Shown here: piece after piece, positions 2,887 through 58,600 of the stretch
How positions within the stretch are numbered: position 1 is the stretch's first letter
Layout: the number at the start of each line of letters is the position of its first letter
IMG/VR virus record: IMGVR_UViG_3300028048_000092
Coordinates: 32,001 to 96,000 of that record
DNA length: 64,000 nt
DNA from: a virus
Lineage: Duplodnaviria; Caudoviricetes
Reading direction: 5' to 3' (one strand)
Notes under the pieces: model-generated
Told to the model about the DNA's origin: nothing
The model's input: only the letters and a program-made list of their open reading frames with translations
Database searches by the model: none
Position numbers and translations under genes: made by a program

Positions 2887-3305
2887 GTTCTTCTTTGTCG
2901 ATCCTCGCTCTACCTTTGGAGGATTGTAAAAGAATCCCGGAAGGTTACTTTAGTGAGTCAGTATTAGTCTGGACCAAAGTATTTCATCCAAAGGATTTAG
3001 TTGAGCTGCCGCCTGCTGTAGTACCTCGTAAAGATGTTATACTTAGCAGGTTCTTATGTCCAGCGCCTACACTGGAAGAGATTTTAGAGAACTTAAAGTT
3101 ATATAAGTATTTGCCCGCTTGTCTTGCGGATGAGGACGGGAGTTATTTTACAACGGTCAAATGGCCTCCATATGCAGAGGAGCGTATGCATAGATGTGGC
3201 GGTACAGCTGTAGAATCCGCCTGGAATACCTGGTTGGCAATGTATAAACTAAGAGAATCTGAAAAAGAAATGAAAGAAAGGGAGCGTTTGAACAGTGACA
3301 GATAA
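2883..3305 (+). CDS. hypothetical protein, early paralog family A
   Basis: LEDCKRIPEGYFSESVLVW ... CPAPTLEEIL. Confidence 0.75.
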   Translation: MSSSLSILALPLEDCKRIPEGYFSESVLVWTKVFHPKDLVELPPAVVPRKDVILSRFLCPAPTLEEILENLKLYKYLPACLADEDGSYFTTVKWPPYAEERMHRCGGTAVESAWNTWLAMYKLRESEKEMKERERLNSDR

Positions 3306-4206
3306 ATATAAAGCAGTAGTGTTTACAGGCGGTGGTTACTTCGGGGTAACTATTGCTTCCTTTTTGTCCTTCCTTGGTAAGGACTATGATGTGCCCAATC
3401 ATGTGGACTGCTTAGCAGGTACTTCTATCGGAGGTATCATTGCATGTGCCCTTATGGGAGGATGCTCAACGCAGGACCTTCTCGATGGTTTTATTAAGAA
3501 TGGTGAAAAGATCTTCACCAAGAGATGGCAGAACAGGATCAATCCTTTAAACCTTCCTTTTTATAGCAATAAGGCCTTGAAGGAGACTATTGAGGAGTTT
3601 GTGGGAGAGCAAACCCTGGAGGATGTAAGAAGGGCCTATCCATGCACAGCTATGTTTGTCCCTGCGACGAATATGACAAAGAACCGTCTGAAAGTCTTTG
3701 ATACTGTAGATCCTGCTGATGCTCATTATAAGCTCTCAGATGTAGCGCTCTATACAAGCGCCGCGGAATTCTATTTTCCTGTGTTGGAAGATGAAGGAGA
3801 TGCGATCACAGATGGAGGCATCAGAGAGTGCTGCCCAGTGGTGACTACAGCTTGTGCTATCAAGGACAAAGTCGGTGTGGACTTTAAGGATATTGACATG
3901 TTCGTATTCGGAGTCGGCACATCCATTGATGGTATTGACAAGGGCTGCGGTACTTATGAAGAGATCAAGAAATGGGGAGCTCTTGATTGGGTCAGGAAGT
4001 TTGTAGTTCCCGATGTTACTAACAGTAATATCTCCATGAGTATCTTTTGGGGAGAACATCTTGGGTTCAACAGCTTCACGTTCTTCAATCCAATCCAGAT
4101 TTATGGTGGTATGGATGATGTCTCAGTGACTGATCATATTCTTACAGAGAGTATTATGTACAAGGAGAAGTTCCTGGAAGAGTGGGAGAAGTTCCTTGAG
4201 CGCTGA
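3295..4206 (+). CDS. patatin-like phospholipase
   Basis: Oxyanion loop GGGYFG, nucleophile elbow GTSIGG, catalytic DGG. Confidence 0.9.
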   Translation: MTDKYKAVVFTGGGYFGVTIASFLSFLGKDYDVPNHVDCLAGTSIGGIIACALMGGCSTQDLLDGFIKNGEKIFTKRWQNRINPLNLPFYSNKALKETIEEFVGEQTLEDVRRAYPCTAMFVPATNMTKNRLKVFDTVDPADAHYKLSDVALYTSAAEFYFPVLEDEGDAITDGGIRECCPVVTTACAIKDKVGVDFKDIDMFVFGVGTSIDGIDKGCGTYEEIKKWGALDWVRKFVVPDVTNSNISMSIFWGEHLGFNSFTFFNPIQIYGGMDDVSVTDHILTESIMYKEKFLEEWEKFLER

Positions 4207-11156: not shown

Positions 11157-11364
11157 TAAGTGCGGAGTTGTCTTAAATGATAAACAGCAGGAGGGTATCA
11201 ATGTTAGGTTTAGATCTTCCTGGCCAGACTATCATCTTGTATTATGCAGTGAGTGTTTCAAGGAATTCGCTAAGCTAGAAGAAACTTTTACAGCTGCGCA
11301 AAGAAAGCTCGAGAACAGCAGTTGCAAAGAGATGGCTCAGCATATTCTGGAAAAAGAGGAATAA
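11131..11364 (+). CDS. small Zn-finger protein
   Basis: FCDKCG ... LCSEC. Confidence 0.7.
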   Translation: MIRDIAFCDKCGVVLNDKQQEGINVRFRSSWPDYHLVLCSECFKEFAKLEETFTAAQRKLENSSCKEMAQHILEKEE

Positions 11365-11942
11365 TGGGAGATGAAAAAAGTCAGAAGTCGTTGAATGGTA
11401 TGAAGTTACTGATACTCGACATGGATGGTGTAGTAAATCGAGGTGCTGATAATTGTTCCCCTGACAGACATATCTATGATGATAGATTTTCTCATGTAGT
11501 ACCTATGCAGAACGGTAAGGGTACCTGTGAGCTTACTTATGTGGACCCTGAACTGGCTAAGCGTGTAAGTAAGCTTATATCTGATTATGATCTTTATATA
11601 GTATCAAGCTCTACCTGGCGCCTTTATTATAGTCAGGAGGAGTTTAAAGAGCTTCTTACTCTTAGGGGACTGCCGGGAGAACGTCTTGTAGGATATACAC
11701 CTAATCTTTATAGAGACAGCTCTTTCTTCGGTGGAGGCTGTCCCAGGCGAACTGAGATAAGGGCCTTTATGGAGCATGCTGAAGAAGAATTTGGCTGGGA
11801 TATTGAATTCTATGTTATCTTAGATGACGATCCTTCGGCAAATTATGATACAGAAAAAGGCAGGCTCTTCTTAACGGACTTCGATAAGGGCTATGATGCG
11901 GAGATCGATAAGGAAGTGAGAAAGTACTTGGATGAAAAATAA
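11364..11942 (+). CDS. HAD-family phosphatase (Swiss-army-knife RNA-repair-like HAD)
   Basis: LILDMDGVVN, IVSSSTWR, GYTP, R..EI, YVILDDD. Confidence 0.85.
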   Translation: MGDEKSQKSLNGMKLLILDMDGVVNRGADNCSPDRHIYDDRFSHVVPMQNGKGTCELTYVDPELAKRVSKLISDYDLYIVSSSTWRLYYSQEEFKELLTLRGLPGERLVGYTPNLYRDSSFFGGGCPRRTEIRAFMEHAEEEFGWDIEFYVILDDDPSANYDTEKGRLFLTDFDKGYDAEIDKEVRKYLDEK

Positions 11943-12281: not shown

Positions 12282-12758
12282 TCAGATTACTGTATAGAAC
12301 ATCAATCCCTGACTGAGCTATGTGAGTTTGTTCTAAGTCTCTTCTTTAGTATAATAGTTGCTTAGAGATATGGAAAATGAGTTTGACAGCTATGCCAGTT
12401 TTTCATCTACCTAAATCTTTGTATAGTAGTCAGAAAACTTTTCTTTGATACTACTTAAAGAGTTAGATATCTCACTTATAATATCGTTTATCTGTTCTAT
12501 AGTATAATAGTCTTGAAAACGACTCTGTAATTCAGACAGAGAGTTTGAGATATCTGCCAGAAACTGATCTATTTCATTTTTTGTATAATAGTTGCTGAGA
12601 TCTGTCTGGGGAGGGATCTCTACTACGTTACCGTTGGGCAGCTTTGCTTTCTGCTTTATTGCGCCGTTCTCTATTGTTTTATAAACAAGAACTGTTCCCT
12701 GCAATATATTCGAGTTAGCAAAAGAGCTGTCGGATTCTATTTTCTATACTCTGGCCAT
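12282..12758 (-). CDS. tail-fibre-like YYTK repeat protein (TAG=Glu)
   Basis: ATG 12758 to TGA, 158 aa, five in-frame TAG; four YYT-x-x-E/Q repeats. Confidence 0.8.
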
Positions 12759-12842
12759 TTTTAAGTCCTTATCTAGTTCATATAAGGGTACTTGGTAAAG
12801 TGTATAAAGACCTTGTAAAAGAGCTAAAAAACAGGCCCTTTT

Positions 12843-12855
12843 TTGGCATAATAAG
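12843..12855 (+). promoter_or_regulatory. TTGGCATAATAAG extended -10-like motif (also at 14725-14737)
   Basis: Identical 13-mer upstream of two transcription units. Confidence 0.45.
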
Positions 12856-12946
12856 TTGAAGGAGATTACAAGGTTGTAATCTTAAAAATTTAATCCTTCC
12901 TGGACAACTGTCCAGTTTCTTTAATGCCATAATAAAGGAAGTTAAA

Positions 12947-13318
12947 ATGGCACTTTAGAAAATCAGTTCGGTGAGAGCAGCCGCTCTCCTCGTCGCCACT
13001 GCAACCAATGTCTCCGATTTCAAGGACTCGAAAGAGTACCTGTTACAGGAGATATAGAGAGCGATGGTAAAAGGAGATTCTCAACTGGGAGTATATGAGT
13101 AGGCTGTAAAAGGCCTGCTCTTGTAGTACCCGGGAGAGGATAAGGAAGCTCTCACTGAACAAGTGATAAACCGTCTGTAGAAGGACTTACCGAAGTTCTA
13201 TCAGAAGTCCTTGAAAGTCTATAGATGGCTCAAATGGGGGCTGCTCCCCGGAATGGCTTTAGCCTTTGGCTGCGGGATCCTGTGTGGATTCTGCTGCAAA
13301 GGGTTGGGGCTGTTCTGA
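12947..13318 (+). CDS. hypothetical protein with C-terminal TM helix (TAG=Glu)
   Basis: AAAGGA RBS, 123 aa with five TAG, TGA stop. Confidence 0.7.
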
Positions 13319-13529
13319 ACGCAGTTATACATATTAGAGCTGGATTTCGCTTGCCCCGGGGAATTGGCCCCCGAATGCCGCGAACCAGCTTTATTTGTTT
13401 ACCGTCTCAGTGTCTCTAGGCCAAAAGAGACGTCGTCCTGAGCAAGACGTTAAAAGGCTCCGCGCTTTTTCCTTAAGAGGGCCTCTTCTATTTTGTTTTT
13501 CTTTTTATTTCCTTATTGTTTTGTAGAAG

Positions 13530-14285
13530 AGACTCTCCTAAGGCGAAAGCTAAAGGCTTCAGTTCACCAGAGCCTGCAATAATAATCTGGCGAACCGGTC
13601 CTGCCGAGGCGAGCGAAAGCAGTTTCGGCTTTATAAGGACAGACCGATGCATCCGGTCAGGAATACAAAAGATGCCCTAGTGCTGCAGGTCAAGCACCCC
13701 AGACAGAAAGGGTTAAAATCGCAGTTGCTCTGGAAGCCTGATAAGCTTTCCCGTGGATACTTCCATTCGCGGACTGGAAGGAGGGACAGAAGAAAGGAAT
13801 GTCAATTCTCTCTGAAGTCCAACCCGAAGAGCCGCCTTAAGTGGCATGAGCTGTATCACGCAGCACAAATGTGACGGGACTTCCGGCAGATCCGGAAGGA
13901 GCTGAGAGGCGTTGTCCGGTGATGCGGACATCTGGCCAGCCCAATGGGGCGACACATGGAAGATTCGTATTCCATGTTGCGGAGGAACTGACGAGGCAGT
14001 GGTTCCTTCTGCAGTCCGAAAGGTTGAGATACCTGTAGGATGTTTGATGTACAGTCTCAGTACATCAACGACAGCAAAGCAAAGGAGATACAGAGGAGCT
14101 ACACTTCTCTGATGTTGAAAGAAGTTTCGGGAAACATTCTATGAGTACAGGCTTTGACAAGCCAAAAGGCTCCGGATGCCAACTGAAATGTATTTTGACG
14201 AATAGCAGCAAGGTTCTATCAAGAGCTAAGCTGTGATGTAGATCAGGGAGCTGCCATATTGGGAAGGAGGTATGGCAGATCCTTT
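13530..14285 (+). ncRNA. candidate large structured ncRNA
   Basis: No credible CDS in either code; more than 10 adjacent hairpins, GAAA/TTCG loops; boundaries approximate. Confidence 0.5.
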
Positions 14286-14290
14286 CTTAT

Positions 14291-14372
14291 GGGGCTGAGA
14301 AAAGTTTCGACAGCATGGAAAGCCAAAGTGCACCTGTCTGGACCCCCGGGGCAGTACCGGGCAGCTCCACCA
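14291..14372 (+). ncRNA. mini-tmRNA (tRNA-like domain only)
   Basis: GGGGCTG/CAGCTCC acceptor stem with G3.U70 and ACCA end; stemless D-loop ending TTCGAC; GAC linker; CCCGG-GGCAGTA-CCGGG T-arm. Confidence 0.8.
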
Positions 14373-14395
14373 ATTAAAACACTAAGGAGGAAGAA

Positions 14396-14641
14396 ATGGA
14401 ACTTAGAATCAGTAAACACGATCTGGGTGGAACTCATATAACTTTGACTAAAGCTAGTATAGGTTGTATTGAGAGAAAAACTCTTAATAGAGTTTTAAAG
14501 AGGTTCGGCAAGCACTTACAAGTAGAGGAAGAGCTGTGTGATAGTGTTACATATGCTATACGCGGCTGTGTCCCTACAGTTAACTGGCTTTTTGAAGTTA
14601 CATGTAAGTTCCCTCATATCAAAGTTGTAAGAGAGCAATAA
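14396..14641 (+). CDS. hypothetical protein
   Basis: AAGGAGG RBS; TAA stop; terminator follows. Confidence 0.7.
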   Translation: MELRISKHDLGGTHITLTKASIGCIERKTLNRVLKRFGKHLQVEEELCDSVTYAIRGCVPTVNWLFEVTCKFPHIKVVREQ

Positions 14642-14643
14642 TA

Positions 14644-14680
14644 AAGGCCTCCCAACTAAGGGAGGCCTTATCTCTTTTTT
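14644..14680 (+). terminator. intrinsic terminator
   Basis: AAGGCCTCCC/GGGAGGCCTT stem plus T tract. Confidence 0.75.
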
Positions 14681-14739
14681 ACATAGCAGCCATTCCAAGC
14701 ACCTTCTAAAAAGTTCCTTTATTATTGGCATAATAAGAT

Positions 14740-14801
14740 GGTGCTGAGGTAAAGGTGCCATAGGAGAAATCCGAGAGCCGGGTCCGATCCCCGGAGCACA
14801 C
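14740..14801 (+). ncRNA. small tRNA-like element
   Basis: GTGCT/AGCAC stem and CCGGG-TCCGATC-CCCGG T-arm, between a promoter motif and a terminator hairpin. Confidence 0.4.
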
Positions 14802-14855
14802 TTAAGCTCCCTTATGGGAGCGCCCTATTTCTTTTTTACACTGTAGGTAGATTAT

Positions 14856-15302
14856 TCAGCGCCCGGGAGTGTCATATTCAAGTTCCCATCCAAGGGACTA
14901 TATCTTATCTTTTTTAGCTGGGTACCATAGGCTGTTCTGGTCATTTTTAATGTAGACAACACCCGGAGCTATATTTGCAGGAGGAGTTCTGAGTCCCCAT
15001 GCACCTGCGTTTCTATCATAGAGCCCTCTTTCAGGATTTAATATAGCCACCTGTTGCTTTCCCCTGAGATGTGGATCTACTTGCTTTCCCCTGAGATGCG
15101 GATCTACACTGGCAGCAGGGGATTTATATCCTGCTTTTCTTGTATTTTTCCGGCTTGCTTTCTGCTGTGCTTCCCATTTTGCAGCGCCGTTGACTGCTTG
15201 TCCCCAGGGCTACCAGATTCTAGTAGTTCCCTTTTCAACCGGAGCGTTCCCAGCTGAATATGTTGCAGCTATCTTCCTGAGTGTCTCTTTGTAAGTATGC
15301 AT
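14856..15302 (-). CDS. putative virion-internal protein (TAG=Glu)
   Basis: MHTYKETLRKIA N-terminus; 148 aa; contains a 27-bp tandem repeat (VDPHLRGKQ x2) at 15054-15107. Confidence 0.7.
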
Positions 15303-15327
15303 AATAACCTTTCGCGTTACACTTCAA

Positions 15328-15340
15328 GGGGGGGGGGGGG
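15328..15340. repeat. G13 homopolymer
   Basis: 13 consecutive G in the intergenic region. Confidence 0.9.
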
Positions 15341-15352
15341 CACGTAAAAGGC

Positions 15353-16570
15353 TTATTTTAGAGGCTTGAAAGAAGGTACCTTTTTAATAGTGCGGATCAC
15401 CTGCTCCCCGTAAATGCCCATTGTACATTCAAACTGCCTGGGAGTGCCTTTGTATTTGGGACACCATAAGTAGTCCTTATGATCGAAGTTGAAGCGCTTG
15501 TCATCCCAGCACCCATTGCACACATTGTAATTTATCACTCTGTAAGGAGTATAAAACTCGCAGGAAGGCAAGGAGAATCCTGAAATAAGAACTACAGGCA
15601 CCCTGCAGCACCATGCCAGCCAGGACATCCCTGATCCAAGTCCTATAAAGAAGTCGGCATCTTTTATAAGGTTTATCCTCTATTGCAAAGGCAAAGCTCC
15701 CGTAGCGTCCTCCACTCCCCAGGGAACATGGTTCCATATAAGTCCATTCCCGTAGTTTCTATCTTTGTTTATGCAGTAGACCTTATATCCCTCTTCTTTA
15801 AGAAATCTTATGACAGAGTCCCATCCACAGGGATTGTTCCAGTGCTTTGTCTGGGAGCTTGCCTGTGTGGATATGACACAGTACTTCTCTTTTATCTTTC
15901 TTTTTGCGGAAAGGTCTACTCTCGGTGGAATATCTTCATCCGATACATCAAGTATATGTGCAGCTGTCTTATGCAGTCCGACTTGTCTGAAGTCAATAGG
16001 CTGCCACTAAGTGTTCCCTCCGAAGAACAGCCCCATGTAGTAAGTAGCATAAGGCTTCAAATCAATGTTCTCTTTAACAGAATAAAAATAAATATCGGGA
16101 TACTGCTTCTACAGAAGCTCCTTTATATGGCCTGGCATAATGCAGTGCAGTCTGCAGTGATGCTTCTGCTGGAATCTCTATACATAAGAGAACCATCCCA
16201 GAGTATCTCCTATGGCGCCGTCGGGGAAGTTTATCACAACGTCCTTCTGAGAAGCATCGTAGGTATGGGTAAAGAGGATCTCTTTCCTGTCAGGGGAAAG
16301 TATCTGCAGCTTATAGTTGATGAAGTACATTTTGCTGCTGAACACTTTTCCACCTGCTTTTACAAGCCCGTTGTAGAAGACCGTCCCGGTGTCCTGATCT
16401 GTAAGGGTGAACCAATGGTCTCCGCTGTCCTTGGGGAAGCTTATTCTAAGTCCCTTGTTGAAGTCATATTTAATGCCCTCTACAGCTTCCATGGTAAACT
16501 GGGAAGGTACCTGCCAGTACACCGGAGGTTTTACAATAGGTGCAGGGGAGAGGGAATCGGAAGTCGACAT
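15353..16570 (-). CDS. autotransporter strand-loop-strand O-heptosyltransferase (Aah/TibC family, TAG=Glu)
   Basis: YDFNKGLRI, GAIGDTLGWFSYV, QASSQTKHWNNPCGW, FIGLGSGMSWLAW, CNGCW...WCP...FEC; four TAG join the two ORF-track pieces. Confidence 0.88.
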
Positions 16571-16666
16571 ATAAAGGCTCCTGTTTGATGTTTTGCTCTA
16601 AGTGATGTATACAAGGAATATACGCATTCGCGTATAAGTATAAAGGAGAAAGGGAAAGTAGGGCTT

Positions 16667-19600
16667 ATGGCTGACAGCAGCTTCTGGAATATAGGAAATA
16701 TAGAATATCCTGTAATACAAGGACAAGCGGGAAAGCCCTTCTACCATTAGCAAGGTCCTCTCATACAGTTCGGGTAGTAGCTGGTCGATAACAGCTGCCT
16801 TTGCAAGTACAGATATGCAAGGTACTTTGCTTACTACTGTGCAGTTCCTTCAGACAGCTCTTCCATAGCCTTTTTCAAGAACTTCGAGCAGGTTCCCTGG
16901 GAAGGGGGGCATAATATAAAGTTCCTTGATTATACCCAGGAAACAGCCAAAGGTTACCAATGGGGAATGTTCAAAGGACCTGTATATCTGGGCTGCTATC
17001 CAACGGGTCACTTTACTACAGGGAAGTGGCTTCCGGTGGAGCTTCCCTATGAGAATGTTTCATAGGACCTTAATGTAACTTCTCCTTCTCCTTATTATAT
17101 ATATTAGGAAAATGAGGACTACAACTACTCCTTGAAGTGCATGATAGTAAGTTCCTATTAGTGCTGCAATGGGGAGGAGGGCTGTGGAGTAGAAGTACAG
17201 AGAGGCTAGTACTTTGAAAGCTCTTTCCCATTCTGCTATGCATAGTTCTTTGTAAGTAACCTTGATGCAAGCGATGCTTCTCAGGTAACAGCTGCTCTTA
17301 TAGAAGGCTCCCAGGGATGTGTATGCACTCCTCCTTACAGGATGCTTAAGAAGTTCTAGCAGTACGATTGCTCTACAGCTACTATAAGGGTATTCAAGTA
17401 GATGGTGCTTCTTCCAGAAGAACTCGACAGATGCTCTTAGTTCTGTCCCTCCTGCCAATAGGAGCTTCCTGCTTTAGCTCCCAATGCTGCTTTTTTAGCT
17501 AAGAAGGATTGTGTTTATTGGGTTTTATGGAAGTTCCCCCTTCCATAGGACTGCAGTGATTGTTCCAAGACTTTACATAAGATATAGTGGCAGTTGGTAA
17601 CGGATTATAAAGATATCCCCGGGGAAGTTGTAGGGAAGGGGCCTGGGTGGAAGCCCCTGAGTTTCCATGATCCTGACGAGACCTTTACATACTGTGAATA
17701 GGAAGCTCCTGGAAAAGTCATCTTCCAGTGGCAGTATGTAAGGAATCCTCAGCCTTCCCAGGGAGAGATATAGGGCAGCCGCCCCGCTGTAAAGCCCGAT
17801 GAAAACCCCTGCAAAGAATACTGCAGGAAGAACCCTCTGGCAAGGCCCTCCATATCAGACTCTTTGTCAGGTGCCTCCGACAGTACTTTGTAGAAGCACT
17901 TTCCCTGCAATGAGCCCTAGCCTCCTCCTATGAAGTACAGAGAGTTCCTCCATACTGAGTTTGATGTATATGAGCTGTCACTTCGAGTTACTGTCATTAC
18001 AAGAGATCAGGTGAAGGAGTGCTATCAGAGCTATAAGATAGATACTCCCTTATAGGACTGGCATTGGAATCTTATTTAGAATGCTGTCTATGATTATCAG
18101 CTTACAAGCTACTTATATGGTACTTCCTTTCGGGGGACTGAAGTAAAGAACGGCTTTATCCATAAGTATGTTGTGCAGTTACATGGAGAAGAGCCTCCTG
18201 AAGATCCTTCCGGGGAGTATCAGGGAGACGACTTCGACATAGTAGCTGATGGAAGCTCCTACAACTTTGTCGATAAAAGTCAGAACCTTTGTCAGTATGC
18301 TTATCAAGTTTATTTAGCAGAGAAGTGTAAATGCTTTGGTGATTGTATTTCAGACTCCCGTTCCTGCAGCACATCAAATCAGAGTGAATATATAAGTGGC
18401 TGGGGGTGCTCCAAATGGCAAAGTCTTGGTCAGCATTCTTAGTATTAGATAAGAAAGGAAATGCGGTTCTGCCTGGATAAGTGGAGCCGGAACCCGGAAG
18501 AGTCTGTACACAAGTAGTGGGTTTATACTACTTTGTCTGATGATCCTTATTTCTGTGAATAGTATCCCCAGCCACTTAAAAGGGGGATTATCTACGATAA
18601 CTATGTATTTACACCAAACTGTTCCGATTCTACAAGTATAGTGGTATCTTTCCCTTTTGTTTCTTATCCCTGGTGTGGAAAACAGCCAAAAGCTTATTAG
18701 GGATATAAGGCATAGGACAGCCTATCCAGCTCCACTTTACTTCAAGTAGTGGACAATGTAATAGATCTTACCAATACAGATCCTCCGATATGTACCGTAT
18801 ATGGATTTATTGATCCTCACAAGGTGGCGGTTTGGCCAGGGTTTATTTCAGAGCGGCCTGTGCGACCAGCGCCTTGCTGCGGAGAAGAGGCCTTCTATTC
18901 CGATAGCTGTCATGCTAAGGGCAAAATTTATTAGCCTCCCATTATAAAGTGGCCCAAGTCCTGTTTGTAGCTTCCAGCGTACGGAGTGAGAGTTTATATA
19001 GCTGCTTTTGGACATGCCTGGCCTGGGTTCATTTCCACGTAGAAGACCGTTGATTCCCAGACTAAGTACTATGTAAATGCTTCCAAGTTCCTGCAGTACT
19101 TCAACTGTACCAAGCAGTCTTAGCTGTAGTTCTATTAGGAGCTCCCATCGTAGTACCCTGAAGGATGGGATCCGCCTTTCTCAGGCTTCTATCAGACCGA
19201 TTATCTTCCTGCAAAGGGTAACTGGTGCATGCCTCCCATAGGCTTCTTCAACTAGCTGTCCCCTGTGAACTTCAACCAGGGCTCTATAGCTTAGTGGGCA
19301 GGAGGTTCGGGAAAAGTCCTTTTGTATATATTCTCCGGGCATGCTTCCCGCTGCTAGTCACAGTTAGAGGTCGGCATAAGAGCACTTGCAGGGAAGAACA
19401 TCGGCGGCAGAAAAGCTATAGGCGTCTAGATCCCCCTTAACAAGAAAGGGGCAGGAGATAACGGGACCATAGCATATTCTTATGATTGTGTTGATGTCAA
19501 TCAGTTTATAGATCCCAATAGTGAGTACTATCATAAAGGTGTCTTATAGAGAGCCTATGAGAATCAGGATATAACAGGGTTCGTTGCCAATGGGTTTGTA

Positions 19601-20833
19601 GATGGTATAGATGCTTAGCTCTGCAATCGTATAGGAGGAAGCTTCCCCGGAGGAGCCTGCAGCAATGTGGAAAAGTTCCTGAATGAGTAGGAACTTCGTT
19701 AGCTGTTTGGTTCTGCTGCTGCAGGAAACTGGAACTCTCATTTCTTCACTTATGCTGATTTGAACTATCCGAAGAGTCCTTTCGGAAAAGCTTGCGCAGA
19801 CAGTTATATAGGTGTCTCCGGGAGGACTGGGGGCAAAAACGCATCTTCACATGATGTTGCGCTGCTGATGCGGATGCAAAAACTGCCCAAGGCAGCTTCC
19901 AGGACAGCCTGGTATATCCAGAACTGCTATGTGACCTTTTATGACTAGGATGATGGATCTGAGATCCTTCCCGGCTGGCCCTACAGGGTGTATGATCAAG
20001 CTGTTGACTTTGGCTATTCTTTTTGTGTGGAAGGCTCTCCTTCCCAGATAACTTATCTTATAAATACGACAGAGAGCTTTACACCCTCTGATTAGGATGT
20101 ATTTGCCGCGCTTATTAATGGCTCAAGAACTACATTCCACATATAGATACCTCCTTATCTGGCAGGAGAAGGGCTCTCTCCAACGGATCTTACTAGAAGT
20201 ACTTTTCAGCTTGTATCTGTAAGGGACAGCAGGAAGTGGCTGAGCATTTCTGCTTCCACTTGGGATGGACGTTGCTATTTGGATGCTTACGGCGGGCTGC
20301 AGGTTACTACTGCAGATAACGGAAGCACTACTTGGAATTGTGAAACGCAGACATGTTATTGGGGATAGCAAACTACAGGAGATTGTGTTATTCCCACATT
20401 GGATATACTGCCCCACGGGGATTGCGATACAGAAACAGGTACCGTAGGCAGAAGCGGCTTTGGCAGATACCGCAGCCTGCTTAAAAATGCTTCTGACTCC
20501 GGTTATGCTCTAGTAAATACTTCCAGTATGCGTTTCTGTGATCTTCCTTAGGGGGTTTTTGCTGCGTTTCTTATAAGAGCCTTAGACAATTGGTACGACT
20601 TTCCAAGCAGCTATGCAAGGGTCTGTGATCAGAATTATTATAGAGCATCCAAAGATTGTATAGTCATACCTGTTCCCGCTAATCTTGAGGAGGGCGACTA
20701 GTATACTCTCAGTATAACTCATGATCTTTCAGATAGCACCACTTATGAATAGGAAGGAGATACTAGTTATCGTAAGTGCCATGTATAGATATAGCAGAAG
20801 TTCATTTTCCACTTGCCGACATAGTGGTACTGA
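16667..20833 (+). CDS. 1388-aa Cys-rich protein, probably virion surface/tail (TAG=Glu)
   Basis: Single frame without TAA/TGA over 4167 nt; dozens of TAG; ORF-track pieces 18173, 18749 and 19760 share this frame. Confidence 0.8.
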
Positions 20834-30187: not shown

Positions 30188-30474
30188 TGAGCGGGACACT
30201 GGGAGCGATTCGCCGGGAACGGCAAAGAAGGGAAGAAGTTCTCCGCAAGGCTCAGGCGGAAGCCGATAAGCGGCAGTCTCTTGAGCTGAACCGCGAGGCT
30301 GTCATTGCGGAGATTTGCGAGGCTTTCGGCTGGACGGAACTGGATGAGTTCGCCCGGAAGATGATCGATGACGCTTTCGCCGGGCAGCTGGTAGACGTGA
30401 AGCAACTAAAAAAAGACCTTGCCAAGTGGAAAGAAGAACAGGAGCATCCGCAGGAGTCTCCGAAGGAGGAATAA
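30187..30474 (+). CDS. hypothetical helical protein
   Basis: TAATG overlap; GC-richer; no TAG. Confidence 0.65.
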   Translation: MSGTLGAIRRERQRREEVLRKAQAEADKRQSLELNREAVIAEICEAFGWTELDEFARKMIDDAFAGQLVDVKQLKKDLAKWKEEQEHPQESPKEE

Positions 30475-30475
30475 C

Positions 30476-31894
30476 ATGCCACTGTATCATCACCAGGTTA
30501 GCACTTCTGATGTATATGTACCAACAGGGAAAACCATGCCTACAGGGGCAGTGTTCTATGCGCCGTTATCGTCTGCGTCTGCGACGGCAGCGACCGGGCA
30601 GACGTTAACGGCAAAAGGGACTGCTACATATCAGAATCAACAAGGCATCAACTGCGTTTATTTTAATGGAAGTTCTTCATATATTTACATCCCTGAAGCC
30701 CTTGCCGATACCTTTCCTGGGTTAAGTTCCAAAGATACCTTAGCTTATTGTTGCTGGTTCAACACAAAAAATAAAAATGCCGGCCAGGAGATAATCTCTT
30801 GTACAGAGGGTGGGGGGTTTAGTATTGGATTAAATTCGGACGGCAATTCGGGTTATATGCATATTTATGTGATGGCAGGTGGTTCATATTTAAATGAGAA
30901 TATTTGTCCCATTTCCAAGGTAAAACAGGATCAGTGGATGTTTATATGCGTTAATTATAACGGAAGCACTGTTGATGTATATTTAGATAACGAGAAGGTA
31001 AATTCTTTTAATAAAACTGGGAATCTTGGCATGCCGAACAACGCTCCTTTGGCGATAGGAGCAGAAAGCGCGGATCTATCTACGACGTTTTCTTCTGATT
31101 GTTTCAATGGTTATATATCTTCCGTGCGCGTCTACGACCGTGCCTTAACCCAATCGGAAATTACCACTCTATCGCAAGAGTTTGCCCTTGCCGTGGAGAC
31201 TTCCGGCTTCGATGAGCTCGGCCATCCGGTGCAATATGATTCTGCCTTTGATGCTGGGTGTTCACTTTCTTACAGCTGGGTAGACGAGAATACAATATTA
31301 TATATTCCTATGTATGGTAATTCTCCTTTTACCGATAAAAGTCAGAATCAATATTCAGTAACGAACAATGGTGTAACTGCTGTGACTAATGTCGCACCTC
31401 CTTCAGGAGGAACAGGGGCTGGATACTTAAATTCAACAAACCACTATCTATATACAGGAATTAATATCCTCAACGGTCTGACTACTTTTACGCTTGAGTT
31501 TGATTTCAGGCTGACACAAATCCCCAGCGGGGGAAATGACTGGGACGACGGCTATTACTTCGCTGCCAACGGGAATAATTACGACAATCCAGGATGCGAC
31601 ATGTATTTTGGAACCTCTCAGATTGTTCTTAATTTTGACAACTATAATAATCGGGTTGGAACTTCTTATACACCCGATACGAATTGGCACAACCTTAAGA
31701 TAACACGAGATTCATCTAATCTGGTATCCGTTTACATAGACGGCGTATTAATAAACAGCTATACCCGTTCCAATAGTTTTTACTCTGGTTCGTATGGCTT
31801 CGCGATCGGCAGAGTAGAGCCGCAGGGAGAAACCGGAGGTGCTGGTTTCCATGGGTATATAGCAAACTACCGAATTTCTAATATTGTGAGGTAA
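30476..31894 (+). CDS. double LamG-domain receptor-binding/tail protein
   Basis: YFNGSSSYI, VRVYDRALTQSEI, FHGYIANYRISN; no TAG. Confidence 0.85.
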   Translation: MPLYHHQVSTSDVYVPTGKTMPTGAVFYAPLSSASATAATGQTLTAKGTATYQNQQGINCVYFNGSSSYIYIPEALADTFPGLSSKDTLAYCCWFNTKNKNAGQEIISCTEGGGFSIGLNSDGNSGYMHIYVMAGGSYLNENICPISKVKQDQWMFICVNYNGSTVDVYLDNEKVNSFNKTGNLGMPNNAPLAIGAESADLSTTFSSDCFNGYISSVRVYDRALTQSEITTLSQEFALAVETSGFDELGHPVQYDSAFDAGCSLSYSWVDENTILYIPMYGNSPFTDKSQNQYSVTNNGVTAVTNVAPPSGGTGAGYLNSTNHYLYTGINILNGLTTFTLEFDFRLTQIPSGGNDWDDGYYFAANGNNYDNPGCDMYFGTSQIVLNFDNYNNRVGTSYTPDTNWHNLKITRDSSNLVSVYIDGVLINSYTRSNSFYSGSYGFAIGRVEPQGETGGAGFHGYIANYRISNIVR

Positions 31895-31899
31895 ATATC

Positions 31900-33114
31900 A
31901 TGATATATCACCACCAATACAGCAACAAAGAAGTTTCGGCTGTTCCAACTACATTTACATCCAATACTTCTATTTCAGGATATGTATGTTCGGCAAGTAA
32001 TACTAATAGCAGCAATTACCCATGGAAGATATGGAAGCAGGACTACACTACATCCGAGTGGGCATGGTGGCCAGGGAATGTGAGTTTACCACAGTGGGTA
32101 CAAATTGAAGTTCCAGAAGCATTCGTTCCGACATCATTCATGGTCATGAATGAAATAGCAACTCCAGCGTCAATGAAAGCAGGGATATTTCAGGGATCAA
32201 ATAACGGTTCAAACTGGACTGACTTATATACGATCTCTGATTGGCCAGCTGATGCTGGATATAGGAACACAATGGAACTCTCTACCAATAATGCTTACAA
32301 GTATTACAGGTTGTACGTTACAGATGGATGGGTATCAGGTGATGCTGTATCAATCCAGGCCATGAAGATATTCAAGAGGGATATGCACCCTTCTTCCGGC
32401 TTCAACAACTGGGGTAAACCTGTCAAGTATCGCTCAGCTAAACTGGCTAAGTGCAACTGGAACCCGATACCGCAGGAAGGACTGGTCTTCTATGCATCAT
32501 TGGCTGAGGATTCCGCTACAGCTGAAACAGGGCAGACCTTCACAAAGAACAGTAAGGGGAACGGCATATCCTTCCAAACCTACAAGAATGTTCCTTGCGT
32601 TAGATTGCAAGATGGCAGCAACATGAAGGTAACTGCCATGACGGATATTCCAACTGGCAATAATCCTTTTACTATTTCCGCGTGGCACAATCTATTGATT
32701 CGCCCTGATGATGATTATGGTGTAGCTGGTTTCGGCTATGGAACGGATGGTGAACGTAGTCTTGTAATAACATGGTTTTCCGCTGCATATGAAGGACCAG
32801 AGAATAATATCGCAATTAATATTCGTGTCTCAAGCGGACTGGGCACCGGGGCAAAATATGTCCTTGGCAACTGGTATCATGTAGCATGTACTTTCGATGG
32901 GACAACATTCAAGACTTATGCTAACGGCGTTTTTGGAGACTCTGGAACAAGAACACTTAGTATGGGGAATACCGCTATATACATAGGAGCTCTCAATAAT
33001 AACCAAACAAATCCCTGGCGCGGTTATCTTGCTGGATGCCGCATCTATAATCGTGCATTAGACGAAAGCGAGATAGCCAAGCTCGCCAATGAGTTCCATC
33101 CTACCAATGACTGA
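31900..33114 (+). CDS. F5/8 type C (discoidin) plus LamG tail protein
   Basis: PQWVQIE, FQGSNNGSNWTDL, AYKYYRLYV; WYHVACTFDG, RIYNRALDESEI; no TAG. Confidence 0.85.
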   Translation: MIYHHQYSNKEVSAVPTTFTSNTSISGYVCSASNTNSSNYPWKIWKQDYTTSEWAWWPGNVSLPQWVQIEVPEAFVPTSFMVMNEIATPASMKAGIFQGSNNGSNWTDLYTISDWPADAGYRNTMELSTNNAYKYYRLYVTDGWVSGDAVSIQAMKIFKRDMHPSSGFNNWGKPVKYRSAKLAKCNWNPIPQEGLVFYASLAEDSATAETGQTFTKNSKGNGISFQTYKNVPCVRLQDGSNMKVTAMTDIPTGNNPFTISAWHNLLIRPDDDYGVAGFGYGTDGERSLVITWFSAAYEGPENNIAINIRVSSGLGTGAKYVLGNWYHVACTFDGTTFKTYANGVFGDSGTRTLSMGNTAIYIGALNNNQTNPWRGYLAGCRIYNRALDESEIAKLANEFHPTND

Positions 33115-44222: not shown

Positions 44223-46445
44223 ATGAAGAAGTATGCGGATATCGATTTGCTTCTCAGTTCTGATCCTGGCGACCCTTTTGGAAGGCATAAATAGAAGTTT
44301 AATTATCAATAGGCAGGTTCTCCTGAATAGAGGAAAAAGTTCCTGAAGATTATCGGACTGCCTGAAAAAGATATTAACTACAAGTCTCTGACAGGGAAGT
44401 CCTTTGCTGATAGAAATAAATAGCGCTAGGAGTACCTTATGGGAACTCCCGCGCAGAGAAACGCCAACTATAAGAACTTTGTAGAGACAGTTGTTTCCAG
44501 ATATCCATAGCTACAGAAAGCCTACGGTAAAGCAGGTCCTCGCTATCTTCAGCAGTTATATTCCGATATGATGACTTCTGTGGGCAGCTTAAAAGTGCAA
44601 GACCCTGATTTACCCAATACAGGAATTAAACCTACTGAGGGTATCTAGTAGGGCGGGAATTGGTGGAAAAATATAATCAAAGCCTGGTTCAATCAGCCAG
44701 ATCCTAACATGACCTTAGCTCGAGTAGGAGATACAAAGGGTACTATAAAGAAGGTTCAGGATAAGCAGTTAGAGGAACAGAGGAAACATCTCAGTAAAGC
44801 CTACTAGCATGCTTAGAAAATAAAAACACTAGACCCGCAGCAGCAAATAGCCGCTTACTCAACAATGGCGCTTCCTGTAGCAGGAGCAGCAGCAACGCCT
44901 GTTGCGCTTTCTTCTAAGTTCGCGCTTCCTGTAACTAAGTTTTTGCTTAGCAATGCTGCTTATATGGCTGGTTAGAAGGCACTTAGTCTGGGAGCTGATT
45001 AGGTTTTTATGCCCACCTTTAATAATTGGACTACAGATATAAACAGTTTTGCAGACGCTATCTTATCTAAAAATTCAGATAAGATACCTTAGAGATTTAG
45101 AGCCGATTTGGCTTCTTAGCTGGGTATTTCTGAAGATAAGCTTGACTTATCTAACCCTGATCAATATAAAGCGGCTAAGCAGCTCTTTACTTCTTCCTAG
45201 CAATCGCGTATGAAGAGTTTAGATTGGTATAGAAAAGGTAAAGAACACGCAGCTCTTATAGCTTCTACTGCAACAGGTAATGTAAGTAATCTTGCCAGAA
45301 ACGGTGGAAAAGCTTTTGGCAAGCAGGTAGTAAAAGATACTTTTCTTCCTTAGTTACTTATAACCGGAAGCCAGCTGCTGGATCCTAAAAGAACAGGTAT
45401 TACTACAGGAACAGCAGCCTTGTTGATGCAGGCGGCAGAATAGCGAGGAGAAGACCCTGAAGCAGCTCTGGCCCGTTATGGGTTTACAGAAGATGAGCAG
45501 AAAACAGCTTGGGACAGGTTTAAACAAGCACAGGCAGAAGGAAAAGGATTCCTGGACTCAGTTAAGTAGAGTGTTTCTCCAGAGGCCCCTCGATCTACAG
45601 AAGAAAAGGTTGTACAGTTTAACGCGGGTATAACTCCGAATGATTATTAGAGAATAAAAAGCGGAGAGGTTCTTACAAACTCTCCTGTTATCAAAGCTGC
45701 AACACAACCATATGTTCCACAAGTAATAGACTTTTTACAGGGTAAAAGCTAGTTACCAGATCTAACCGCACTGTCAAAAGGTATCGGTAATAATCCTTTG
45801 GGTTAGACAGGAGCTATAGCAGCTGTTAATAATCTTATGCAGAATAAATAGGTAGTCGCTGCACTTGCCCAAGCTAAGCCGGAAACCTTGAGTAAATTTC
45901 TAACAAAGCTTCAGGAAGTTAGTAAAGGAGGGGGACTGAGAAAATTCCCGACCCTGCAAAAAGTAATGACTTAGCATGGAATCTCTTTAGCAACTTACCA
46001 TGTAGATGCTTTATAGAACCTTGTTAAAGGTTAGGAAGATAATGATAAAGTGTATAATACACTGAAATCTTATATTCCTTTAGTTAAGATACTCGAAGGG
46101 TTTGGAAGCGCTAAAGATCCTAGAGTTAAATAGCTGGAGAAACGTGTAAGATCTCTTATAGGAACGAGAATGACTAAGAATCCCTTATTCGTAAATAAAG
46201 CTATGGGACTCTGGGCATAGTTTAATGGACATCCTGATCTGGCTTCTTTCTTATCCAGTAACGGCGCCTTCTACGGAACGCTTGCCACCGTTGGAATAGG
46301 GCTGCCTCTTACCATCTCCCTTATGAGCTCCCTTTTCGGGGGATCTAAACAGCAGCAACCTGTACAGCAAGCTCCTATGCAGGGATATCAGCCTATGGCA
46401 TATGCTCCCAGGGGCATTACCGAGCGGGGCTTAGTAGTGGGGTAA
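44223..46445 (+). CDS. 740-aa putative virion-internal/ejection protein (TAG=Glu)
   Basis: Absent from the ORF track; one frame free of TAA/TGA with many TAG; MKKYA start; hydrophobic C-terminal helix. Confidence 0.75.
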
Positions 46446-55686: not shown

Positions 55687-58600
55687 ATGCCCACTATGTC
55701 TCCTAATAAGGTTGTATAGAAGAATGCCCAGGACTGGGTACGCGATTTAAGATTCTCCAATCAAGTCAATATGCAGACTATGGGAGTGGACACCGACCGT
55801 GTAACTCCATAGCTCCTTTTAGCTTCCAGCAATAAACTTCTCGGTATCTCCAGAGGAACTACTTAGGGAGACATGAAGGACTCCCTTCAGTTCCAGCGCT
55901 TTTACGGACCTGTAGAGTACTTTGCTGAAAGGATCCAGAAAGATGGCGGCAGCGTAGCCAGAAGTATGCTCTGGAAAGCAACTAACAGAGGCAACTTGGA
56001 CTTTATCGGTTCAGGTTCTCTGCAGCCGCATGTAAATGCAGTGTTCCATGAAAGTAATCTTTCCCAGTTCGTAGACAATACAACTCCTTTGGATGGGATA
56101 GACAACTCCCAGAAAGTAACCCGCATAGGCGAGGGCGGACTCAGCGATGAAGATTCCGCGCCTATCGAGATGCGTCTTGTGCAGCCCTCTTATTATGGTT
56201 ATGTAGATCCGGTAAGGTGCTACGATGATAAAACAGAGATCTATACTAAAAAGGGCTGGAAATCAGTAACCGAAATGTCCCTGGAAGATGAGTTTGCTGT
56301 ACTTATTGATGGTAAACCTGCATGGAGCAAACCCATCTCTCTTCAGAACTTCGATCATGACGGTCTGATGTACTGCTTTGAGAATTGCTATATCAACTTC
56401 TCTGTAACTCAGGGTCACCGTATGTATGTCTCTAAGGAAAAAGGCGGTGAGTATGGTATAGAATTTATTGATAGTCTCTTTGGAAACTCCAAGTATGTGC
56501 TTTGCGGTGCTAAGAAAGCCTCTGTTGTAGATGAAAAACAGAAATGGTTCTATCTGCCCAAAGTTGATCAGGTGGGAACTGTAAAGAACATAGACAAGCT
56601 GGATATAGTTGATTTTGCAAGATTCATGGGCTGGTATCTCAGTGAAGGTTCCTGTGATCTTTCCCACTCCGGTTCAGGCTCCATTGATTACAGAGTCCGT
56701 ATCACCCAGTCCCCTGTTCTTCATCCGTAGAACTACGAGGAAATAAGAGACCTTGTAGAGAAGCTTCCTTTCGGCGCCCATCCGAAGCATTACTGGGAAG
56801 CCAACAGCTCCGATATAACCATCAAGAGAAAGCAGCTCTATTACTATCTGGAACAGTTCGGAGGTTCTCTTGACAAGTTTATTCCTGATTGGATCTTTAC
56901 AGCTCCCACAGAAGCCAGATGGGCCTTTGTAGATGCTATTTTAAAAGGCGACGGCAGCAACCAGAGAGATCTTAATACTATTTCCAAGAGACTTGCAGAG
57001 GATTTTGCCAGACTTATGTTCGAGTTGGGGCAATCTGTAAGAATAATCTCTTCCCAGCAGACTTATATCGGAGTCAATGGAAAGCAGGCAGGTCTTATTT
57101 ATCAGATTACCTGGCACAAGCGCTATGAACATAAGCTGGAAGCCAGAAAGAGAAAAGACCGCAACAGCGGCAAAGGTTACTACACAGAATACTATAGAGG
57201 CAAGGTCTATTGCCCGACAGTCCCTGGCGGCCTTGTATATGTAAGAAGAAAGAACTCCAAAGGTTTCTGGTGCGGGAACACCGCGTAGAAGAGCCCCGGT
57301 ATTACAGGTTACCTTACCAAGAATGTAATGAAAGGTACCGATGGCAAACTTTATCAGAAGTTCATCAATATGCACACAGGGCAGACCTAGATGCTGGATG
57401 CCCAGACAGCCGCCAAGAAGATCATCACCACCAATGAGTATCTGGACTCTAAGGATGATTATGTCTATGCAATTGGAGGACCGAGAGGTCTGAGAGTGGT
57501 AAAGCGCAGCGACGTTGATTATATCCTGCCGAATGCGGATGATGCTTTCTCTGCAAACGCTAATGCGGTTCCCATGCTGTCAGGTATCAAAGCTATGCGG
57601 CTTCTCATGGGATGCCACCATCCGGAAACTCCTATAGCTGTTATCGACAAGCATGGTTATACCCATATAGTCCCTGCCAAGAGAGTGGGGCACATGGGAC
57701 CTGTATATGTCTTCGGCTGCGATGAAAAGGGTATCGATCAGGTATATCCTGTAAGAAAAGTCGTTACCAGAGTGCCTGCCAAGAAGAGCAAGTTCAAGAA
57801 AGTCATTCTTGGTTCCGGCAGAGTGCTGCTAACTTCTGCTGAACATAAATGGTGGACTTATCAGGAAGGCTTCAAGCTTCTGCAGGCAAAGGACCTTAAG
57901 GAAGGCATGCTGGTTCCCAGAAGCCTCTTTACTTCTATGCCCGTGAGACTCACTGAAATAATGGGAGTCCCTGTTACAAGAGAGATCTGTGTCTTTATGG
58001 GACGCCTGATAAGAAGCCTTAAAGCCACCAGCTACAGTTATCGAGTCACTTATGTGAAAGACAGAGACAGAGGTATCGACCAGAAAGTAGATATCCTCAC
58101 AGCTTTGGAGCAGCTCGGCATAAAGAATTATAATGTATTCAGTGCCAGAGGGCTTCATGCAGTATCCATAAAGGATCCTGTTTTCCAGGATTGGGTGGAT
58201 CAGAATATAGGTGAGCTCCCAGAAGACAGACGCATTCCAAGCGCCATTCTTTCTCTGCCGGAAGGATATACCAGTATCTTCCTGGATTCTTATTATAAAG
58301 ATCTTGAAACTGTTGGTGAAGATGATCAGGGAGATACCTGGCTTCTCAGCATCGCCAATCCTGCCTTGAGAGACTCTCTGAGTTTTATGCTCAATAAGAT
58401 CTATACAGACACAAAATATAGAGACGTTACCAAGAAGGATTATATCCACAGGGCCCTGCAGCTGTTCCCTGCAAGCACTTCGCTGGGAGATATCGTATTG
58501 GAGAAGATAACTAAGATCCTTGATGTCCAGGCTCCTCCGGTAATGATCGATATAGACTGCGACGATCATGTATATGCTGCTGCCAATGGTATTATTACAC

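Follow-up and report, generated by a model that had tools for sequence, protein, structure and literature searches.

A tag-less mini-tmRNA gene beside a large structured non-coding stretch in a TAG-recoded rumen phage

Transfer-messenger RNAs (tmRNAs) that consist of the tRNA-like domain (TLD) alone are known from a phage and from organelles. The mycobacteriophage DS6A is listed by Hudson, Lau and Williams as bearing a "TLD only" tmRNA (PMC4131195). According to two papers that cite Mao et al. 2009, a molecule of the DS6A type strongly inhibits tmRNA in Escherichia coli whether it can be charged or not, perhaps by titrating SmpB (PMC4131195, PMC11915505). The organellar tmRNAs without a coding sequence (CDS), including those of jakobid and oomycete mitochondria (RF02544) and the ~65-bp forms of Mallomonadaceae plastids, likewise hold the tRNA-like domain only and no tag frame (PMC11915505). 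They are usually permuted and rescue with imported SmpB, whereas a phage RNA faces a host with a complete tmRNA; SmpB is believed to be the working partner of those in jakobid mitochondria and some plastids (PMC11915505). The tmRNA database, in its 2025 paper, counts 9 "standard, no CDS" sequences among 97,179 (PMC11915505). This report concerns an 82-nucleotide (nt) gene at 14291-14372 on the plus strand of a phage DNA of 64,000 nt (the window; positions 32,001 to 96,000 of the IMG/VR record IMGVR_UViG_3300028048_000092, Caudoviricetes). Judged by its sequence, this gene is of the same class as the DS6A RNA, a class that is already known. The source record comes from bovine gut and comprises 106,679 bp, with a CheckV completeness of 57%.

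The element at 14291-14372 is a genuine RNA gene, and it is well supported as such. A covariance model made from 58 other phage copies, window excluded (R2), matches it over model positions 1-80 of 80 with 56.1 bits (E 1.1e-10). It is the only match on both strands of the 64 kb and the only significant match in the whole record. Because R2 was built without the window and still scores the element at 56.1 bits, a chance origin is excluded. A further model (R1), seeded with the window and 51 IMG/VR copies and with DS6A excluded, gives the element 53.8 bits, and finds the DS6A element (JN698994 28478-28560, our locus L130) at 56.7 bits, a site that is unannotated in GenBank. Additionally, an RNA-library contig (X3), from a sample and a study other than those of the window, covers 14276-14509 with zero differences. 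Since the 82 nt are identical in this independent contig, the short form is not a collapsed assembly of a full-length tmRNA, an outcome that the earlier note on this DNA, made from the sequence alone, had considered.

Standard annotation passes over the gene. ARAGORN calls no tRNA or tmRNA at the element, and none that is credible in the window or the whole 106,679-bp record, intron mode and lowered thresholds included; its single call, a tRNA-Glu with a 990-nt intron, was rejected as implausible. No Rfam family matches at the element at gathering thresholds. RF01849 (alpha_tmRNA) reaches 20-23.7 bits against a gathering score of 50 on 14345-14372 of the plus strand, covering the T arm and 3' acceptor strand only, and RF04321 (tmRNA_permuted) reaches 17.9-23.7 bits against 47. 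RF00023 gives no match to the element, and RF02544, the model for mitochondrial CDS-less tmRNA, gives none up to E=10 in 13800-15300 and none up to E=1 in 12700-14400. The check with ARAGORN and the RF00023 and mitochondrial models, which the earlier note had proposed, yields no call. A canonical tmRNA is ruled out by the sub-threshold Rfam scores and by the length, as 82 nt are too short for a resume codon, tag frame and pseudoknots PK1-PK4. A decoding tRNA or amber suppressor is ruled out as well, there being no 7-nt anticodon loop, no CUA and no ARAGORN call with introns.

Read 5' to 3', positions 14291-14372 (+) run GGGGCUG-AGAAAAGU-UUCGAC-(28 nt)-GGAC-C-CCCGG-GGCAGUA-CCGGG-CAGCUCC-ACCA, and the parts are as follows.

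14291..14372, plus strand: mini-tmRNA gene, tRNA-like domain only, with CCA encoded; 82 nt, known from sequence, the R2 match and the identical RNA-library contig.
14291..14297, plus strand: 5' strand of the acceptor stem, GGGGCUG; 7/7 pairs with 14362-14368, including G3 (14293):U70 (14366).
14298..14311, plus strand: D-loop analogue without a D stem, AGAAAAGU then UUCGAC (14306-14311), from sequence.
14312..14339, plus strand: P2-like hairpin in place of the anticodon arm; 28 nt, read by hand in the family register.
14340..14344, plus strand: GGAC motif (14340-14343) and one extra C ahead of the T stem, the extra C being found only in the window copy.
14345..14361, plus strand: T arm CCCGG-GGCAGUA-CCGGG, 5 bp and a 7-nt loop; matches the alpha_tmRNA consensus, and the T stem covaries.
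14362..14372, plus strand: 3' strand of the acceptor stem, CAGCUCC, then discriminator A and CCA (ACCA at 14369-14372), from sequence.

The earlier note's description of an 82-nt tRNA-like domain without a tag frame is borne out. UUCGAC and GGAC are separated by 28 nt with no pseudoknots, and the P2-like hairpin is the sole remnant where the mRNA-like domain and pseudoknots would sit. Neither a 7-nt anticodon loop nor CUA, a tag open reading frame (ORF) or pseudoknots occur within the 82 nt, and the loops at the hairpin tips have the size of tetraloops. The alanine identity set (G3:U70 and discriminator A) and the UUCGAC/GGAC motifs are present in the sequence as that note claimed, and its assignment of the T loop GGCAGTA to the alphaproteobacterial tmRNA variant agrees with the Rfam alpha_tmRNA consensus, GGCgGUA. 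The tmRNA-specific UUCGAC and GGAC around a short P2 are thus present in the window copy, but in an atypical form with a bulged C and an extra C. Read by hand in the family register, P2 pairs A22:U49, G23:C48, A25:U47, U26:G46, G27:U45 and G28:C44 with C24 bulged; the R2 model flags the middle pairs as non-standard, and the minimum-energy fold takes another register, GACA/UGUC. The fold energy of the whole 82-nt element is unremarkable against shuffles (z -0.87), so the support for it comes from comparison with relatives and not from thermodynamics.

Compared with described RNAs, the gene is closest to that of DS6A (tmRNA Website tmID 11587). Both are phage-encoded and ~80 nt long, with a G3:U70 acceptor, a short P2, a T arm, no tag frame, no pseudoknots and the GAC core of UUCGAC (gUCGAC in DS6A). 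Unlike the window copy, DS6A has the canonical UUCGAUU T loop, has GCAC for GGAC and ends in CUA instead of an encoded CCA, whereas the window copy has a GGCAGUA T loop with an "AG" D loop, the extra C and the encoded CCA. The carriers differ too: DS6A is a temperate actinophage with the standard code and an integrase, whereas the window belongs to a TAG-recoded rumen phage in which the gene stands beside a large non-coding RNA. Full-length tmRNAs with the GGCAGUA loop, in one piece in Candidatus Saccharibacteria and permuted into two pieces in some Alphaproteobacteria (RF01849, RF04321), share both termini with the window gene, GGGGCUGA..UUCGAC and GGAC-(T arm GGCAGUA)-CAGCUCCACCA, but are 350-400 nt long or in two pieces and have pseudoknots and a tag ORF (e.g. 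ANDNSQLALAA). With tRNA-Ala the window RNA has in common G3:U70, A73, CCA and an acceptor-T minihelix recognisable by alanyl-tRNA synthetase (AlaRS); unlike tRNA-Ala, it has no D stem, no anticodon stem-loop and no ARAGORN call.

The strongest argument for the fold comes from the family of phage copies. IMG/VR was searched with a loose pattern (GGGG, UUCGAC and UCCACCA with gaps), and the family counts given here hold among the matches listed. Two scans provided at least 59 distinct copies. All 4 unconstrained acceptor pairs and all 5 T-stem pairs are formed in 55 of the 174 pattern matches listed, where we estimate that ~0.03 among the 174 would form all 9 by chance. The P2 hairpin, which was not used as a filter, has 5/5 pairs in 38 of the 52 unique copies, something that shifted registers hardly ever show, and GGAC, which the pattern did not demand, stands directly ahead of the T stem in 43 of the 52. 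In a model-based alignment of 58 copies, window excluded, 93.9% of the cells at paired positions are paired, against 65% when shuffled and 46-59% in slid registers. Cells with both sides changed number 278, against 77 in shuffles, and the covariation score is 0.711 against 0.156, a value reached by 0/500 shuffles. All three helices covary, namely acceptor pairs 5-7 (3-5 pair types each), the T stem and all 5 P2 pairs; G1:C72, G2:C71 and G3:U70 are invariant in 58/58, as the search pattern enforced. These compensatory changes demonstrate family-wide selection on the fold.

The loops provide a further signal. Across the 59 unique copies, "AG" two bases before UUCGAC goes with GGC, UGC or AGC T loops in 21 of 23 cases, and "GG" in the D-loop analogue goes with UUC or UCC T loops in 25 of 30. 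The window copy combines an AG D loop with a GGC T loop and so fits this covariation. A conserved elbow contact between D loop and T loop is what would produce such a pattern, and the odd T loop of the window copy is no sign of decay; together, the variant T loop and the D-loop change that matches it speak for a three-dimensional fold that is conserved.

Mini-tmRNAs without a tag seem to be a phage tool against host ribosome rescue and tagging that is widespread yet hardly ever annotated. ARAGORN calls only 1 of 51 family copies, so the class is nearly invisible in annotation; both ARAGORN and Rfam miss it, and the at least 59 distinct copies stand against the 9 database entries of the "standard, no CDS" type (PMC11915505). 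Within phage tRNA arrays, and on the same strand, lie 14 of 51 copies, several of them 1-13 nt from the next tRNA, which speaks for processing of the tRNA type. Knowledge of the class itself is unchanged by the window copy. What that copy adds is an example from a phage with a recoded stop codon, for which there is a concrete reason to interfere with tmRNA (PMC6207430), together with a T-loop variant whose D loop has changed to match, and a place directly next to a large structured RNA that figures prominently in metatranscriptome assemblies of the rumen. New here is that the mini-tmRNA abuts a structured non-coding stretch of ~720 nt, with contigs that end just before its 5' end.

Some further observations on the family may be added. 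A mini-tmRNA type of 81 nt (GGGGUAG..., with a GGCAGUA T loop) recurs near-unchanged in ~28 viral contigs from many samples (L132-L166, e.g. L030:21-101(-)), which suggests that one very widespread phage group carries it. The protein common to four family loci proved to be a pyrimidine-dimer glycosylase and is unrelated. BLASTN of 13000-16000 against 50,697 phage records gave no match, no relatives of the heptosyltransferase near the gene or of the 81-aa ORF downstream of it were found in IMG/VR, and a metagenome scan for the subtype of the window copy gave 0 matches.

We consider that the mini-tmRNA is best explained as a tag-less RNA of the DS6A type that competitively inhibits host trans-translation via SmpB, and we place the probability of this at about 0.55. 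Transcription of the gene would run rightward and would probably include the 81-aa ORF and the ~720-nt upstream RNA. RNase P would cut at U(-1)/G1, and the 3' end would be trimmed to the encoded CCA. The RNA would adopt an L-shaped fold held by the D-loop/T-loop contact and would be recognised by AlaRS via G3:U70 and A73. Host SmpB would be bound at the UUCGAC/GGAC side, and EF-Tu too if the RNA is charged, in competition with host tmRNA. Having no resume codon and no tag frame, the RNA could not itself tag proteins, and trans-translation and ssrA tagging would be lowered during infection. The benefit might be greatest when ribosomes are held up at in-frame UAGs in late genes, which is speculation. 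Any SmpB partner would be that of the host, because the 106-kb record has no phage SmpB gene. The earlier note had proposed an SmpB decoy or tag-free rescue RNA that shields phage proteins at recoded UAG codons; its decoy part coincides with the published explanation for DS6A, while a shielding specific to UAG recoding is not supported.

Several points weigh against this explanation. The mature 82-nt RNA, its charging, its SmpB binding and its fit to the SmpB and AlaRS of the host are predictions from sequence, and the inhibition by a DS6A-type molecule is reported in papers that cite the original experiment (PMC4131195, PMC11915505). The window copy is a family outlier, with an extra C placed after GGAC, ahead of the T stem, and a P2 that needs a bulged C, and its function may be weakened for that reason. 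RNA-library cover of the mini-tmRNA consists of two contigs of low depth, and these might derive from precursor RNA or from carried-over DNA. Lastly, the family shows no visible association with recoded phages.

The surroundings of the gene bear on its alternatives, and the neighbouring features are listed here.

13564..14290, plus strand (strand inferred): ORF-free, structure-rich stretch of ~720 nt, from folding and RNA-library contigs.
14251..14290, plus strand: 10-bp hairpin and U-rich run AUCCUUUCUUAU ending at U(-1) before G1; a terminator-like site, from the fold and contig ends.
14396..14641, plus strand: ORF of 81 aa with no in-frame TAG; its ATG lies 24 nt, and an AAGGAGG ribosome-binding site 12 nt, after the CCA.
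14644..14669, plus strand: intrinsic-terminator-like hairpin closing the unit; 10 pairs, 7 of them G-C, then a T run.

The stretch 13564-14290 is a candidate new large phage non-coding RNA and is more unusual than the mini-tmRNA. No convincing ORF is found in it, TAG read-through included. Its minimum free energy is -264.5 kcal/mol (z -4.6) on the plus strand, against -231.5 kcal/mol (z -2.8) on the minus strand. Three RNA-library contigs, at 13575-14286, 13586-14269 and 13564-14289, cover it with depths of 137, 33 and 11 (three metatranscriptome runs from two studies, X2 and X3 being one study and X5 the other), against ~6 for contigs that cover the mini-tmRNA and the ORF downstream of it. 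These contigs give neither the strand nor true RNA ends. All three end before G1 (14291), two at 2-5 nt and one at 22 nt, with no loose ends, and the DNA run continues. This is a weak hint at an RNA end just before the mini-tmRNA, and RNase P cleavage at U(-1)/G1 and termination at 14251-14290 would explain it equally well; the hairpin at 14251-14290 would be an intrinsic terminator or else the stem at the 3' end of the upstream RNA. The ~720-nt stretch is probably in the same primary transcript as the mini-tmRNA. Within 13500-15300, about 14659-14902 and the first 60 nt have no RNA-library cover, and no inference is drawn there.

The upstream stretch has no counterpart in the collections searched. 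No Rfam family, ROOL and GOLLD included, matches it at E up to 1, and no homologue occurs among ~165 viral loci. GNRA-capped hairpins are not enriched in it. A 96% variant (X5) placed on the minimum-energy fold shows 22 substitutions, of which 7 keep a pair, 6 break one and 9 are unpaired. Nothing comparable lies upstream of the gene at the other family loci, where the median ORF-free span is 0 nt. Downstream, the 81-aa ORF matched no Pfam or PHROG family. Further along, at 14740-14800 (+), lies a second tRNA-like minihelix with a T-arm-like CCGGG-UCCGAUC-CCCGG and a possible 5-bp stem GUGCU/AGCAC, beside a terminator-like hairpin at 14806-14826. The minihelix starts GGUGCUGAG, where the mini-tmRNA starts GGGGCUGAG, and is without UUCGAC, GGAC, G3:U70 and CCA. 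It was rejected as a second mini-tmRNA, as the family model matches its T arm alone (9.9 bits, E 2); perhaps it is a degenerate duplicate, or else a signal for processing.

Recoding of TAG is strong in the phage itself: with TAG read through, stop-to-stop ORFs cover 55 kb instead of 28 kb. Plus-strand genes in the first 1-12 kb of the window are without in-frame TAG, while the late genes from 16.7 kb onwards are rich in it, with 51 in 16667-20833 (1388 codons), 27 in 44223-46445 and 44 in 55687-63999. The mini-tmRNA sits in the transition zone between these two blocks. In the 106-kb record, 57% complete, no tRNA (suppressors included), no SmpB, no release factor or ArfB-like gene (PF00472) and no tyrosine integrase (PF00589) was found. 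Deletion of tmRNA restores propagation of UAG-containing viruses in E. coli with unassigned UAG (PMC6207430), and a recoding link for this particular phage is plausible. The co-occurrence with recoding in related phages that the earlier note had suggested looking for was looked for, and no comparable TAG signal was found: a TAG-specific read-through signal like that of the window occurs in 0 of ~55 family loci, nearest relatives L078, L121 and L133 included, in a comparison limited to at most 15 kb per locus that could miss recoded late regions. Because related loci lack a comparable TAG signal, the class appears to be a general phage accessory. The proposal that ties the RNA to UAG recoding is not borne out, given the 0 of ~55 loci and the standard code of DS6A.

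The alternatives may be weighed on this ground. A charged mini-tmRNA with SmpB could enter stalled ribosomes and donate its alanine, after which a factor of the ArfB or release-factor type would release the untagged protein. Such a tag-free rescuer would make sense of the alanine identity and encoded CCA, fully kept in the window copy and across the family, which a pure SmpB sponge would not need, and the CDS-less tmRNAs of jakobid mitochondria and some plastids, believed to work with SmpB (PMC11915505), would offer a parallel. We regard it as unlikely, however, as the DS6A-type molecule is reported to inhibit tmRNA charged or not (PMC4131195), a peptidyl-mini-tmRNA with no resume or stop codon needs a further release route, and 106 kb of phage DNA hold no gene with PF00472. 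An integration-site (attP) relic, or a decaying and functionless remnant of a host tmRNA gene, would fit the extra C and bulged P2 of the window copy and the many mobile elements that integrate into ssrA (PMC11915505). This is very improbable: an attP needs just the 3' end of ssrA, whereas here both halves are kept with 7/7 acceptor pairs, the compensatory changes across the family demonstrate selection on the fold, the window copy has its D-loop/T-loop covariation intact, and a tyrosine integrase (PF00589) is absent from the 106 kb.

The position of the gene suggests two further alternatives. In eukaryotes, the tRNA-like fold of mascRNA (MALAT1) directly follows an abundant long non-coding RNA, whose 3' end lies at the RNase P site. 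By analogy with this, and with the tRNAs that punctuate mitochondrial transcripts, the fold in the window could serve as punctuation in RNA processing, recruiting RNase P and 3' trimming so as to end the ~720-nt RNA and free the mRNA of the 81-aa ORF. The U at -1, the contigs of two studies that stop just before G1 (a weak hint) and the strong ribosome-binding site 12 nt past the CCA speak for this, but in the window the coincidence is read from contig ends alone, which give neither true RNA ends nor strand, and the hairpin and U-rich tract at 14251-14290 account for the same ends without RNase P. Any tRNA would do for such a role, which leaves the tmRNA-specific UUCGAC, GGAC and alanine identity unexplained, and in other members of the family the gene has no large non-coding stretch ahead of it (median 0 nt). 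Punctuation as the main purpose of the gene is improbable in our judgement. A composite RNA operon, in which an abundant, undescribed ~720-nt RNA is 3'-matured by RNase P at the mini-tmRNA 5' end and the freed mini-tmRNA shuts off host ssrA tagging and spares the UAG-rich late proteins, is quite improbable. A shield specific to recoding, preventing ssrA tagging of late proteins paused at up to 51 in-frame UAG codons per gene, draws on the strong recoding of the phage, on the place of the gene between unrecoded and recoded blocks, and on tmRNA holding back viruses with UAG codons where UAG decoding is poor (PMC6207430). In the other ~55 family loci, a test of limited power at up to 15 kb each, TAG-specific signals are absent, and DS6A uses the standard code; we hold this shield to be decidedly improbable.

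The sequence also offers clues to the host. The 3' motif (GGCAGUA T loop and CAGCUCC) lies in Candidatus Saccharibacteria genomes in roughly 95 of the 119 matches listed, and it occurs in permuted tmRNAs of some Alphaproteobacteria as well. In an alphaproteobacterial metagenome-assembled genome (L286), the T arm and acceptor 3' strand are identical to those of the window gene. The 5' half of the window gene is closer to alphaproteobacterial permuted tmRNAs, with a mean alignment score of 38.8 vs 29.9, and the UAAAGgCAAAG motif is shared with alphaproteobacterial tmRNA 5' halves. As an observation in its own right, the one-piece tmRNAs of Candidatus Saccharibacteria carry the GGCAGUA loop that Rfam models only for the alphaproteobacterial permuted tmRNA; a GGGGCUG 5' end stands 350-500 nt, mostly 350-390, upstream of the 3' end in 93 of the 119 matches listed (L169-L287).

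Among the neighbouring genes, one at 11322-11942 (+), lying 2.3 kb ahead of the mini-tmRNA, encodes an RNA-repair "Swiss Army Knife" HAD domain (PF18143, E 2e-19). DS6A for its part has a gene for an RtcB-like RNA ligase, and together with this RNA-repair-type domain it makes a candidate for a recurring link between mini-tmRNAs and RNA repair. The heptosyltransferase gene, on the minus strand at 15353-16753, is a neighbour of the mini-tmRNA. Between it and a minus-strand ORF at 14856-15302 lies a run of 13 G (15328-15340), possibly a slippage-prone or sequencing-difficult spot. A patatin-like phospholipase (PF01734, E 1e-19) is encoded at 3295-4206 (+), within the early block that is not recoded. 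Inside the TAG-rich late block, two adjacent genes at 30419-33114 (+) are free of TAG and carry concanavalin-A-like lectin (Laminin_G_3) domains.

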